Assembly (NCBI GenBank): GCA_963829405.1
Contig: CAWHIZ010000036.1
Span: 23,619-87,618 of the forward strand
Source: an uncultured Actinomycetota bacterium
GTDB taxonomy: Bacteria; Actinomycetota; Actinomycetes; Mycobacteriales; Mycobacteriaceae
Direction: 5' to 3'
Length of the DNA stretch: 64,000 nt
Shown here in pieces: positions 34,789 through 39,319 of this stretch. The first letter of the stretch is position 1; each line of letters begins with the position of its first letter. Below the pieces are notes generated by a model. That model did no database searches. It saw only the letters and a list, made by a program, of their open reading frames with translations, and was not told the DNA's origin. The translations under genes were made by a program, and so were the position numbers.

Positions 34789-36163
34789 ATGAAGCTGATC
34801 TCGCCGACCGATTCGATGTTCCTGATCGGCGAATCTCGTGAGCATCCGATGCATGTTGCCGGCCTGCAGCTCTTTCAGCCGCCCGAGGGCAGTGGCCCCG
34901 ACTTCATCCGCGACCTGCACGAGACGATCGTCGCAGAACGACGATTTCCAGCCGACCTTCAGAAAGCATCCCGGCCTGATGCTCGGCGGCATCGCCAACG
35001 TCGCCTGGGCCTTCGACAAGGATGTCGACATCGACTACCACCTCCGCAGATCCGGTTTGCCCCGTCCTGGCCGCATCCGCGAGTTGCTCGAGCTGGTGTC
35101 GCGGCTGCACGGCACCCTGCTCGATCGGCACCGGCCGCTGTGGGAGACAAGCCTCGTCGAGGGTCTGGAAGACGGTCGTTTCGCGATCTACACCAAGATG
35201 CACCACTCGCTGCTCGACGGCATCTCCGCGCAGCGCCTCACGATCCGGTCGATGTCGACCGACCCCGACGACCGCGAGGTTCGGGTGCCGTGGACACTCG
35301 GCCCGAAGCACAGAGACAAGCGCGCCGACGCGTCGCGGTCGACTCTGCAATCGATCACCGGCGCCATCGGGTCGGTTGCCTCGTTGGCTCCCTCGGCGCT
35401 GTCGGTCGCGCGGGCCGCGCTGCTTGAACAGCAGCTGACCCTGCCGTTCCGAGCGCCCAAGACGATGTTCAACGTGCCGATCGGGGGAGCGCGGCGGGTG
35501 GCCGCACAGTCATGGCCCCTCGCGCGGATCCGAGCGATCAAATCGGCGGCGGGCGTCAGCTCCAATGACGTCGTGCTGGCCATGTGCGCCGGAGCGCTGC
35601 GCGCCTACCTCATCGAAGAGAACGCGCTGCCGGAAACACCTCTGGTGGCGATGGTCCCGATCAGCCTGCGCGCCGAGGGCGAGCAGGACGCGGGCGGCAA
35701 CATGGTCGGCACGATCCTGTGCAACCTCGCCACCGACACCGAGGATCCCGCCAAACGTCTCGAGGCGATCAACACCTCGATGAACGACAACAAGAGGGTG
35801 TTCGCCGAGCTGCCGAAGAACCAGGCGCTCGCGTTGTCGGCATTCCTGATGTCGGGAATCGCGCTCGCGTTGGTGCCCGGGTTCGCGTCGTCGGCTCCGC
35901 CGCCGTTCAACATCGTCATCTCCAACGTGCCGGGTGCCCGTGAGCCGCTGTACTGGAGAGGCGCCCGACTCGACGGCAACTACCCGCTGTCGATCGCGTT
36001 GGACGGCCAGGCCCTGAACATCACGATGACCAACAACGCCGACAACCTCGACTTCGGCCTCGTCGGCTGCCGCCGCAGCATTCCGCACCTTCAGCGCCTG
36101 CTCATGCATCTCGAGGACTCGCTGACCGACCTGGAGAAGGCCGTCGGAGTCGCAGGCGGTTAG
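34789..36163 (+). pseudogene. Wax ester synthase/diacylglycerol acyltransferase (WS/DGAT), one frame change
   Basis: N-terminus 'MKLISPTDSMFLIGESREHPMHVAGLQLF..' (ATG 34789) is in the frame of ORF 34618..35427. The rest, including the catalytic 'HHSLLDG', is in ORF 34838..36163. The switch is at about 34930. Length is 3n+1. Confidence 0.85.
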
Positions 36164-36181
36164 CCTGCGCCCTTGCCGTTG
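36157..36181 (+). repeat. 25-bp direct repeat, left copy (cggttagcctgcgcccttgccgttg)
   Basis: Identical to 37788-37812. It contains the WS/DGAT stop codon (TAG 36161-36163). Confidence 0.9.
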
Positions 36182-37787
36182 GTGTCGGTGCTGATCGATC
36201 GATTTTGTCGGTGTTCGAATGTATGTTCGAGTCATGTCAGTGGTTGCGGTGCGGGAGGCGATGGCGAACGCTGTGCGCCGCCTACGACGCCGTCGATGCC
36301 TGCGATGTTGATGCGTTGACCCGCGCCGAGGTGGTGTCGGTGATCGACGATCTCGAAACACTGACCTGCCGGATGCCGACCCAGTGCGCATCGGCTGCTG
36401 ACCCGGCTGCAGGCCGAAACCACCCCGCGTGAGATGGGCGCCAAATCGTGGAACGAGGTGCTGCGGATCCGGTGGCGGCTGTCGACGGGTGAGGCGTCGC
36501 GGCGGCTGCACGAGGCCGCCGACCTGGCCGCGCGCACCAGCCTGGTCGGTGAGCCGTTGGCGCCGCTGCTGCCCGCGGTGGCCGCCGCCCAGTCGGCGGG
36601 ACTGATCACCGGTGAGCACGTCGCGCGCGATCCGCGCCGCCATCAAGCGCCTGCCGTCGTGGGTCGACACCATCACCGCCGCGCAGTTCGAGGTCGACCT
36701 GGTGCGCGTCGCGGTCGGGGTCGGACCCAAAGAGCTACGCGAGACCGCCGACCTGCGGCTGTTCCTGCTCGATCAGGACGGCCCCGAACCCGACGACGCC
36801 GAACGCGAACGCAAACGCCGACTTCACCACTATCGCCAAGGGCCGTGACGCGATGACCGCGGCTAGTCGCCGAACTTCACCCCCGAGGCGTGGGCGGTGT
36901 GGGAAGTGATCTTCGCCAAATACGCCGCGCCCGGCATGTGCAACCCCGCCGACGACCGAACCGTGCACCTCGGGCACCCCCACCAGGCCCAGATCGACAC
37001 CGACGACCGCACCCTGGGCCAACGCCAGCACGACGCGATGCTGGCGATCGGGCGCATCGCGTTGATGAGCGGTGAACTCGGCCACCTCAACGGGCTACCG
37101 GTGTCGGTGATCATCCGCACCACCCTGCAGGACCTGGAAAGCCGCGCCGGCATCGGCGTCACCGGCGGGGGCACCAAACTCCCGATCGCCGACGTCATCA
37201 GAATGGGCGCGCCACGCCAACCACCACCTCGCCGTGTTCGACGGAGCCACCGGCCAAGCGCTGGCGCTGTATCGCACCAAGCGGGTCGCCTCGCCCGCCC
37301 AGCGGATCATGCTGATCGCCCGCGACGGCGGCTGCACCAAACCGTGCTGCACCGTGGGCGCCTACGGCTGCCAGGTCCACCACGCCACCACGGACTGGGC
37401 ACAAGGCGGCAACACCAACGTCGACGACATGACCCTGGCGTGTGGACCCGACAACCGCGACGTCGACGACGAGCGGCTGGCAGACCCGCATCAACACCCG
37501 CGGCGAATGCGAATGGACACCCCCACCCGATCTGGACCACGGCCAATCCCGCATCAACTACTACCACCGCCCCGAAGCACTCCTGCGACCACCCGAAGAC
37601 CGGGCGCTGCCCGAACCCCAACCACCGGAACCGAAGTCACCGAAACCAAGCGGCACAACGACTACCGACGTCAACCCGTCAGGACCTCGACACCACCGAA
37701 ACACCCGGCGGACCCGAACCACCCGACCACAAAGCCGCCTAACCCACACCGCGGGTGAATGAACAGATACATCCACTCGGATCAAAT
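36182..37787 (+). mobile_element. REP13E12-like single-gene element (DUF222/HNH endonuclease) bracketed by 25-bp direct repeats
   Basis: 1606 bp between two perfect 25-bp direct repeats, carrying only the DUF222-HNH gene. It separates two convergent genes whose stop codons both lie inside the repeat. Confidence 0.6.
36219..37762 (+). pseudogene. DUF222 / HNH endonuclease (13E12-repeat family), at least seven frame changes
   Basis: Family-typical text is spread over ORFs 36205..36432, 36434..36856, 36612..36848, 36897..37742, 37234..37758 and 37442..37762. The HNH core is 'GCTKPCCTVGAYGCQVHHATTDWAQGGNTNVDDMTLACGPDNR'. Frame order is 0>1>2>0>1>0>1>2. Confidence 0.8.
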
Positions 37788-37812
37788 CGGTTAGCCTGCG
37801 CCCTTGCCGTTG
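37788..37812 (+). repeat. 25-bp direct repeat, right copy
   Basis: Identical to 36157-36181. It contains the stop codon (TTA on the + strand, 37791-37793) of the minus-strand SDR gene. Confidence 0.9.
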
Positions 37813-38531
37813 TCGACCCGGTAGACGGCGCCGTGTACAGCTGCCGCGTCGTCGCTCGCGAGGAATGCGACCACGTTGGCGACATCGAGGGGCGCCATCA
37901 TGCCGCGCGGGGAAGCCGTCCGCATGATCAGGTCGAAGTTCGCGTCGTCCGGCGCGGAGAACTTCTCGATCTGTGGTGTCAGCATGCCGCCGGGGCAGAC
38001 GGCGTTGACCCGCAACCGGTCGGCGGTGTACTCGACGGCCAGCGCTCGGGTGAGCCCGATCAGGCCATGCTTGGCCGCGCAGTACCCGGCGGAGTACGCC
38101 TGGCCCTCGACACCGGCGATGGAGGCGACGTTGACGATGTTGCCGCCGTGGGCAAGTAAGTGGGGTAGCGCGGCCCTGCACAGGTAGAACGGTCCATTCA
38201 GGTTGACCGCGAGGTCGTCCGCCCAGTCGTCGTCGGTCATGGTCTCGGTACGGCGCATCTGATGGCTTCCCGCGATGTTGACGAGCACGTCGAGCCGACC
38301 GAACCGCTCGACACATCGCTCGACCGCATCGCGACAATCCGTCGCCGAACCCACGTCGACCGATGCGTAGGCACCCGCTTCCACATCGGCGAACACCGCG
38401 GCCAGCCGGTCGGAGTCCCTGGCTATACCGAAAACCGTTGCACCCTGGCGGGAAAGCAGCCGCGCGGTTTCGGCGCCAAGCCCAGAGGAGGCGCCGGTGA
38501 CCAGAATGACTTTGCCGCCTAGCGATGACAT
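37791..38531 (-). CDS. SDR-family oxidoreductase
   Basis: 246 codons from ATG 38531 ('MSSLGGKVILVTGASSGLG..', catalytic 'YCAAKHG'). The ORF-track start 39044 is an antisense extension into the next gene. Confidence 0.8.
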   Translation of the reverse strand: MSSLGGKVILVTGASSGLGAETARLLSRQGATVFGIARDSDRLAAVFADVEAGAYASVDVGSATDCRDAVERCVERFGRLDVLVNIAGSHQMRRTETMTDDDWADDLAVNLNGPFYLCRAALPHLLAHGGNIVNVASIAGVEGQAYSAGYCAAKHGLIGLTRALAVEYTADRLRVNAVCPGGMLTPQIEKFSAPDDANFDLIMRTASPRGMMAPLDVANVVAFLASDDAAAVHGAVYRVDNGKGAG

Positions 38532-38573
38532 TCGATTCAATCCGCCCTTCAGCGTCGACGTGGGATTACGGTA

Positions 38574-39319
38574 ATGGACGTGGAGGAGCTTGCCGCACAA
38601 CGGGAGTTCACGGCGTACGGCCCGTCGCACCTGGTCGTGCTCGCCGTGTTCGTCATCGGCGCAGTGCTTCTGGTCTGGATCGGCCGTCGGCAGACCGAAG
38701 CGCAGGCACGCATGCTCGGTCGCGCGCTGGCCGTCGTGATCGTCGCGGCATTCGCTGTGGCGCTGGTGTACAAGCTGATCCGGCCCGACATCCAGACCTC
38801 GATACCGCTGCAGCTCTGCGATATCGCAGAGCTCACGGCGGCCTACGCATTGTGGACGCAGCGTCATTGGGCTTTCGTGCTGGCGTACTACTGGGGTCTC
38901 GTGCTGAGCTCGCAGGCGCTCATCACGCCGGACATCGGCACGCCGCAGGAAGGTGCGCCGGATTTCCCGAGCCATCTCTTCCTGACGTTCTTCATCCTTC
39001 ACGTACTCGTCGTGTGGGCGGCGATCTATCTCACATGGGGGCAACGGAACCGGCCGAGTTGGCGGGACTATCGATTCGCGATCTCGGTGACGCTCGCATG
39101 GGCGGCGTTCACCATCACTTCAACGCCATCACCGGAACCAACTACGGCTACCTCAACAGGAAGCCCCCGACCGCGTCAGTGCTGGACGCGCTCGGGACCG
39201 TGGCCGGTCTACCTGTTGGCCGAGATCGCGATCGTGCTCGCGTGTGGGCGCTGATGACGTGGCCGTGGGAGCGGAAACGGCACGCAGACGTCAGCGTCGG
39301 GCGGCAGGCAGCTCGCTGA
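38574..39319 (+). pseudogene. TIGR02206/YwaF-like integral membrane protein, three frame changes
   Basis: Frame of ORF 38574..39254 up to '..AAFTIT'. Then 'FNAITGTNYGYLNRKPPTASVLDALG' in the frame of 38525..39319. Then back for 'PWPVYLLAEIAIVLA'. Then 'VWALMTWPWERKRH..' again in the second frame. Switches are at about 39110, 39197 and 39240. Confidence 0.6.

Follow-up and report, generated by a model that had tools for sequence, protein, structure and literature searches.

Few loci in mycobacterial genomes are as recombinogenic as the SOS-induced 13E12 or REP13E12 repeats. The mycobacterial LexA box has the consensus TCGAAC(N4)GTTCGA, and in Mycobacterium tuberculosis six peaks of LexA chromatin immunoprecipitation fall at genes of the 13E12 family (PMC3381160). 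In that species REP13E12 is also found among the most often converted loci and at inversion breakpoints; the repeats are described as being without a defined function, and the recent papers that we consulted do not explain how they come to occupy new positions (PMC13061034, PMC13157036). In the literature that we searched, we found no report for this family of an insertion footprint, of an empty site or of a target duplication. Here we report on a stretch of 64,000 nucleotides from an uncultured member of the Mycobacteriaceae (assembly GCA_963829405.1, contig CAWHIZ010000036.1, positions 23,619 to 87,618 of the forward strand; hereafter the window), in which a DUF222/HNH element of the REP13E12 type lies between two perfect 25-bp direct repeats, and we show that this element is an insertion. 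The focal genome, a 5.7-Mb assembly that is probably a metagenome-assembled genome (MAG), is called G000 and the focal insertion site is called site A.

Results

The 25-mer CGGTTAGCCTGCGCCCTTGCCGTTG occurs twice in the window, at 36157-36181 and 37788-37812, with 0 mismatches, which confirms the perfect 25/25 repeat reported in a preliminary description of this DNA. No third copy was found in the window at up to three mismatches, and beyond the two focal copies the 25-mer is found nowhere in the whole 5.7-Mb assembly. Dinucleotide-preserving shuffles (100 in number) yielded 0 matches, and the similarity of the two copies breaks off abruptly at either end of the 25 nt. Between the repeats lie 1606 bp of DUF222/HNH sequence of the REP13E12 type, and on either side stand two convergent genes, for a wax ester synthase/diacylglycerol acyltransferase (WS/DGAT) and a short-chain dehydrogenase/reductase (SDR). 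Each repeat copy provides the stop of one neighbor, as the preliminary description had also pointed out: the left repeat holds the final codons of the WS/DGAT gene and its stop TAG (36161-36163), and the stop of the SDR gene on the minus strand, TTA (37791-37793), falls in the right repeat. The repeats and their flanking genes are as follows.

34838-36163, plus strand: WS/DGAT gene, an open reading frame (ORF) with Pfam PF03007 and PF06974
36157-36181, no strand: left 25-bp repeat, the duplicate, with 18 of its 25 nt non-coding here
37788-37812, no strand: right 25-bp repeat, the native 3' end of the SDR gene (..VDNGKGAG, then stop)
37791-38531, minus strand: SDR gene, about 246 aa as judged from the G273 orthologue

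The WS/DGAT gene is intact and matches WS_DGAT_cat (PF03007) at 1.6e-73 and WS_DGAT_C (PF06974) at 1.3e-38. The SDR product matches adh_short at 1.2e-52, with the domain beginning at residue 178 of a 417-aa ORF (37791-39044) that is probably an over-extension, the orthologue in G273 being 246 aa long. Since the 3' end of the SDR gene (..GCC.GCGCCCTTGCCGTTGTCGAC) is conserved across many species, the right repeat is the native sequence and the left repeat its duplicate.

Empty sites were sought by joining the two flanks through one 25-mer and searching 400 genomes of the genus. Uninterrupted matches to the joined flanks were found in G214, G077 and G383. The junction in both G214 and G077 is ...GGTTAGCCGGCG...; the 25-mer region is present once, and the WS/DGAT TAG and SDR TTA overlap as TTAG. 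G383 and G294 are also empty, with a WS/DGAT gene that stops earlier in both. A scan of metagenomes with the WS/DGAT protein added three further empty sites. One of these, L198, is a soil contig (Ga0190265_10130307) with 95.96% identity to the joined flanks over 2423 bp and one gap; it carries a single 25-mer identical to that of G000 and thus a precise empty site. The junction that the preliminary description had predicted for an empty site, with a single 25-mer and WS/DGAT and SDR genes sharing TTAG, is therefore present in G214, G077, L271 and L198. Since four relatives have one 25-mer and abutting genes, the focal locus is proven to be a true insertion with a 25-bp target duplication, and the insertion footprint proposed from the window is borne out. 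The duplication left both convergent genes whole, each with its own last codons and stop.

An exact-protein look-up for assemblies of the same species gave no match. In G072, genes for PepSY_TM, a PCuAC copper chaperone and a Dyp-type peroxidase lie as a block between the WS/DGAT and SDR orthologues (L040, G072:C10:47100-53400), so that gene content at this junction varies independently of the repeat element. We considered whether G072 and G273 hold other mobile DNA at site A and rejected this, as the sequences there are ordinary genes (PepSY_TM, PCuAC and Dyp peroxidase in G072, a membrane protein in G273).

Site A is also filled in three other genomes, G015, G353 and G235, whose flanks are about 84-89% identical. 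In all three the element is in the same place and orientation as in G000 and has the same boundary between its right end and the right repeat. The left repeat differs: G015 keeps 8 nt of it (CGGCTAGC), G235 keeps 14 nt with 12 matches, and in G353 the two ends survive, CGGTTAG on the left and CGTTG on the right (about 7+5 nt), around a scrambled middle. In a tree of rpoB-rpoC, G000, G072, G015 and G235 form one clade (96/100), and the empty G214 and G077 are in its sister clade. A single old insertion is therefore the simplest reading of the filled sites. However, L198 is empty and the repeat of G000 is perfect, and at least one further event, a refresh or a re-insertion, is therefore needed. 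The element may have been inserted or re-inserted recently in the G000 lineage or lost precisely in that of L198; alternatively, an empty allele may have replaced the filled one, or recombination with an empty allele may have refreshed the left repeat. Mismatches between G000 and L198 are spread evenly over the junction region, with about 4 in every 100 bp, and thus give no sign of a recently imported divergent tract. A recent lateral import of the filled allele was rejected, as the flanks show no divergent tract against L198 and the core shows no foreign segment. At two other sites of the family, B and E, the rpoBC tree shows a patchwork of filled and empty states (G306, G383, G177, G122, G273, G235, G072). 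Site E is filled in G306 and empty in G383 and G177, while site B is filled in G306 and empty in G235 and G072; this patchiness points to precise losses, allele replacement or repeated gains.

The boundaries of the element were taken from 60 family loci in named Mycolicibacterium and Mycobacterium genomes. Conservation begins sharply at TTGTCGG, 14 nt upstream of the ATG, and stops about 8 nt past the stop codon. The conserved unit of 1.55 kb is shorter than the 1606-bp interval, and the extra DNA inside the repeats amounts to 23 nt on the left and about 36 nt on the right. The parts of the inserted segment are as follows.

36182-36204, plus strand: left arm of 23 nt between repeat and unit, homologous to the site-A arm of G353
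36205 to about 37751, plus strand: conserved REP13E12-type unit, present in six copies in the genome at 92-93% identity
36215-36230, plus strand: LexA SOS-box-like palindrome TCGAAT-GTAT-GTTCGA, with 1 mismatch to TCGAAC-N4-GTTCGA
36219-37742, plus strand: DUF222/HNH reading, broken across three frames, with stop TAA at 37740-37742
about 37323-37459, plus strand: Cys/His-rich HNH-like motif within the DUF222/HNH reading
37752-37787, plus strand: right arm of about 36 nt, related to the site-A arm of G353 and to arms in G015

Each arm is unique within the G000 genome. The right arm is 36/38 identical to the site-A arm of G353 over an overlapping 38-nt stretch and is a diverged form of an arm of about 70 nt common to three G015 copies; the right arm therefore moves together with the element. 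The left arm recalls the TGTCGGTG..GATCGA motif of the unit itself and has the appearance of templated filler or of an end motif in repeat. The octamer TGTCGGTG has 11 copies in the window, 4 of them inside the element (36183, 36206, 36335 and 37102), all on the plus strand, where about 0.1 would be expected. Two of these four are non-coding and stand at the left end with a spacing of 23 nt, and one coincides with the left boundary shared by the whole family; the octamer may be a protein-binding or end motif.

The SOS box was found in 61 of 74 family loci and is 95-100% conserved. It encodes the conserved N-terminus MYVR (ATG TAT GTT CGA) and overlaps the start codon, which LexA binding would therefore be expected to cover; a second in-frame ATG (MS..) comes 15 nt further downstream. 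No terminal inverted repeats pair the two ends of the inserted segment, an Rfam search of the element gave no match, and searches for promoter and terminator consensus and for hairpins in the arms gave no signal exceeding controls. No integrase is encoded in the 1606 bp or in the adjacent genes, and no recognized transposase (DDE, HUH, serine or tyrosine) in the element, where only DUF222 and a weak HNH match were found.

The preliminary description had placed a single gene between the repeats. This does not hold for G000, where the DUF222/HNH reading runs through all three frames, with at least 4 frame changes and at least 11 indels relative to intact relatives. Pfam DUF222 (PF02720) matches in three fragments, two above the cut-off of 24.4 bits (31.5 and 82.6 bits) and one below it (21.9 bits), and an intact relative scores 260 bits. 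The columns of Cys370/Cys375, His385-His386, Asn398 and Asn410 are invariant in 37 relatives. The protein had no counterpart in the PDB, whether sequences or folds were compared. In G000 all six copies are broken, the copies in G353 are intact, including the site-A orthologue (500 aa), and G015 holds both intact and broken copies. About 30 of the 36 indel events in the G000 copies are single-base G/C insertions, and many are common to differing subsets of the copies. These shared indels argue for real lesions spread by conversion. The odd indel spectrum, unusual for natural decay, and the probable MAG origin of the assembly may instead argue for consensus error; rpoB, rpoC and the WS/DGAT and SDR genes are intact in G000. 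The focal copy reads as a dead one in this assembly.

The six copies in G000, which share 92-93% identity, are spread over five contigs (C36, C17, C12, C24 and C28). The five paralogues of the focal unit lie at C17:91856-93391, C36:112857-114394 (copy C), C12:81751-83282 (copy D), C24:16819-18344 and C28:9125-10641 (copy F). A tree of units from orthologous and paralogous sites (the G000 contigs and L039, L057, L065, L071, L059 and L063) clusters by genome and not by insertion site, with supports of 100/100 for G353, 99/98 for G000 and 99/99 for G306. Along its whole length, the site-A unit of G000 is nearer to its own paralogues than to its G353 orthologue. The dispersed copies are thus homogenized by gene conversion within each genome.

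Three of these copies have features of their own. Copies D and F have extra arms in common, a left one of about 47 nt (AATTCACTTCTGGCACTTTGGTTTCAGGCGTCACA..) and a right one of about 50 nt (GAATCCCAACGATCACGTGAAGGTGACC..GGTCAGGCCGACG), and therefore make up a larger mobilized unit or a nested element. The site orthologous to copy F is empty in G214 and holds 123 bp of other DNA in G077. In G015 (L070, G015:C11:66200-69800) this spot, which is convergent intergenic, holds a different DUF222/HNH member in 2.8 kb of extra DNA, and the stretch begins with the same TTGTCGG..TTCGAA..TTCGAA motif. At copy C the order left flank, element, right flank is common to G000 and G353, and in G214:C38, G015:C1, G177:C10 and G122:C2 the right flank is found some 4.5 kb upstream of the left one, which suggests a rearrangement associated with the element.

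The long duplication is not a family trait, at least not detectably. The preliminary description had named a lack of flanking repeats at other copies as an observation that would refute its reading, and this lack is largely what we observe: with two partial exceptions, long flanking repeats are absent at the five other G000 copies, at 23 copies in relatives and at 74 loci in named genomes. No exact flanking repeat of 13 nt or more was found at the five other G000 copies. When 29 copies with their flanks were compared with 300 shuffles, only the focal copy (25 bp), G015_C11b (18 bp) and G015_E (imperfect) rose above chance, and no flanking repeat stands out among the 74 further loci. Many family copies are shared between species and are old, so that short or decayed duplications could have been erased. 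The perfect 18-bp repeat of G015_C11b was rejected as a target duplication, since the 18-mer is the right-arm end of another copy and is absent from the empty site in G000, and thus probably derives from the element. At copy B, the stops of two convergent genes overlap in the empty sites of G122 and G273 (CCTAG/CTTAG), and in the filled form CCTAG at least is duplicated. Surviving insertions in overlapping stops must duplicate the overlap, and the pattern is therefore in part a matter of selection. A decayed duplication of 20 bp was also considered at copy B and seemed suggestive on inspection, but it was not significant in local alignment against shuffles, and its spacer is better read as a left arm (GTCCGG...), which leaves CCTAG as the one part surely duplicated. 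CTAG/TTAG was likewise tried and rejected as a target motif: CTAG is five-fold enriched beside elements, but about 80% of loci lack it upstream, and nearby gene ends explain the enrichment.

Discussion

The explanation that we favor, with moderate confidence, is a staggered break about 25 nt wide, cut by an SOS-induced nuclease of the family, filled in after joining and carrying filler at its left junction. The target was the overlapping stops (TTAG) of the convergent WS/DGAT and SDR genes, and the inserted DNA consists of the 1.55-kb unit, with its LexA SOS box first and then the DUF222/HNH protein, together with short site-specific arms. Two nicks about 25 nt apart would have opened the double-strand break, the overhangs would have been filled in once the element was joined, and a short filler copied from the element itself would have been added on the left. 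The cutter may have been the element's own SOS-induced HNH nuclease, active in an ancestor or provided by another copy. Since site A is filled in at least four species but empty in a near-conspecific, either an old insertion was later lost or replaced and its left repeat refreshed, or the site was hit repeatedly. In the former case, some lineages would have lost the element or taken an empty allele, and the left repeat of G000 would have been refreshed from such an allele; in the latter, site A would have been struck more than once. After insertion the unit was homogenized with its paralogues by gene conversion, as is observed. Copy B lends support to this proposal, as its target too was a pair of overlapping convergent stops, of which at least CCTAG was duplicated.

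A number of findings weigh against a staggered cut by the element's own nuclease. Long flanking repeats are absent or undetectable at more than 100 other copies of the family, and the focal copy is itself not intact. The assignment of the DUF222/HNH protein as a nuclease is weak: the Pfam HNH match scores 14.9 bits, under the cut-off of 21.4, and in an AlphaFold2 (AF2) model the helical DUF222 part is confident while the HNH-like part has a predicted local distance difference test score (pLDDT) of 30-45. To our knowledge, no nuclease activity or cut site has been described for DUF222/HNH proteins, and we know of no precedent for a 25-nt stagger among HNH enzymes. The history of site A is also difficult to reconcile with a simple old insertion, as the near-conspecific L198 is empty and the repeat of G000 is perfect although the insertion looks old. 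Moreover, position 10 of the 25-mer, the only variable one, is T in both copies of G000 and G in both copies of G235; in G353 it is G in the left copy and C in the right.

A duplication that rebuilds the 3' ends of target genes is what integrative elements produce, and the repeats could instead be att-like cores. A circle with the arms and one 25-mer would then have integrated by Campbell-type recombination at the SDR 3' end, catalyzed by a recombinase in trans or by short-homology recombination, and the two repeats would be the attL and attR cores. Such an origin would suit the 25/25 identity in G000, which persists in an apparently old insertion, as well as the precise empty site with an identical single 25-mer in the 96%-identical L198 and the way in which filled and empty forms of sites A, B and E are scattered over the species tree; REP13E12 has also been tied in the literature to a putative prophage attachment site. 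We nevertheless consider it unlikely, since no integrase lies in or beside the element, the 25-mer is found nowhere else in the G000 genome, and the length of the left repeat differs among the four filled species. Other copies lie at unrelated sequences without a common core, and the site-specific recombination that the preliminary description had read from the length of the repeat finds neither an integrase nor a shared core in its favor. Another possibility is that the element is not mobile by itself and was captured passively, a chance break or stalled fork having been repaired by end joining or by template switching from a resident REP13E12 copy. This repair would have left the 25-bp duplication and the filler behind as side effects, and ordinary homologous exchange of filled and empty alleles would account for spread and loss. 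Random capture is hard to square with unit boundaries that are sharp and identical in 60 loci, with the same site, orientation and right junction in four species, and with many copies at different sites per genome. We therefore hold it to be improbable, even though the filler-like left arm echoes the unit, the arms vary by site and seem to carry bits of earlier flanks, inverted repeats are lacking, no duplication is consistent across the family, and gene conversion among the copies is rampant.

Homing, in which the HNH nuclease would cut an empty allele and homologous repair would then copy the filled allele into it, would explain why the element recurs at one site in several species. Related species do have site A in both filled and empty form, and between G000 and G353 the identity is about 95% in the right arm as against 84-88% in the host flanks, although the underlying 36/38 match is not significant against an expectation of 86%. 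Homing makes no duplication, however, and cannot account for the first insertion, and the G000 unit is closest to its own paralogues over its full length. The homing-driven gene conversion suggested in the preliminary description also predicts co-converted flanks, and no divergent co-converted tract is found at the G000-L198 junction. We thus regard homing as a very unlikely origin, while it may help the spread of the element. That the repeat or the position of the element is a mis-join is scarcely credible; the assembly is probably a MAG, but the same element with the same junctions is present in three independent assemblies. A bolder reading, about which we are distinctly doubtful, takes the DUF222/HNH (13E12) units to be a class of mobile elements in their own right, induced by the SOS response and driven by a nuclease, with neither inverted repeats nor a transposase. 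Here a nick at a fixed target point would set the invariant right junction, from which the element would then be copied in. Resolution of the second junction would take place at varying distances, giving the duplications of 8 to 25 bp at site A in four species, with templated filler at the left end, and site A would have been hit independently in several lineages. If true, this would be a DNA-level analogue of target-primed insertion.

The locus offers a clean picture of before and after: the exact target, the inserted DNA (unit and arms), the 25-bp duplication, an intact orthologue in a sister species, and empty alleles that include a near-conspecific one. The mobility of 13E12 repeats thereby becomes a question that can be tested at the bench with defined substrates.

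The focal locus shares single features with several classes of known mobile DNA. Unusually long target duplications are made by IS1549 of M. smegmatis and by casposons (14-15 bp). The focal insertion resembles these in its long target duplication in an actinobacterial genome, but IS1549 and casposons carry DDE or Cas1 transposases and terminal inverted repeats, and the focal element has neither. Unlike classical insertion sequences, it also belongs to a family that shows no target duplication of fixed length at every copy. Islands and prophages with tyrosine or serine integrases likewise have identical direct repeats that rebuild the 3' end of the target gene and leave a precise empty site; in contrast to these, the focal element has no integrase, spans only 1.6 kb, and has other copies without a common core. 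Free-standing HNH homing endonuclease genes of the phage seg/mob type similarly consist of a lone nuclease-type ORF as cargo and occur as filled and empty alleles among relatives. Homing leaves no target duplication and shows co-conversion of the flanks, whereas the focal site has a 25-bp duplication without a co-conversion tract, and its family occupies many sites per genome.

The closest likeness is to the REP13E12/13E12 family of M. tuberculosis (Rv1148c, Rv0094c/95c, Rv1587c/88c and Rv3466/67), whose members have the same DUF222 (PF02720) and a C-terminal Cys/His HNH-like motif. Here as there, the repeat is dispersed, multi-copy and of about 1.4-1.5 kb, has a 5' LexA/SOS box, and undergoes gene conversion and recombination among its copies. 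The focal copy differs in that it lies in an environmental relative among the rapid growers and reads as broken. Concerted evolution of the kind reported within M. tuberculosis thus extends across species to environmental rapid growers, and the focal element is a further, unusually well-documented member of the known REP13E12 family.

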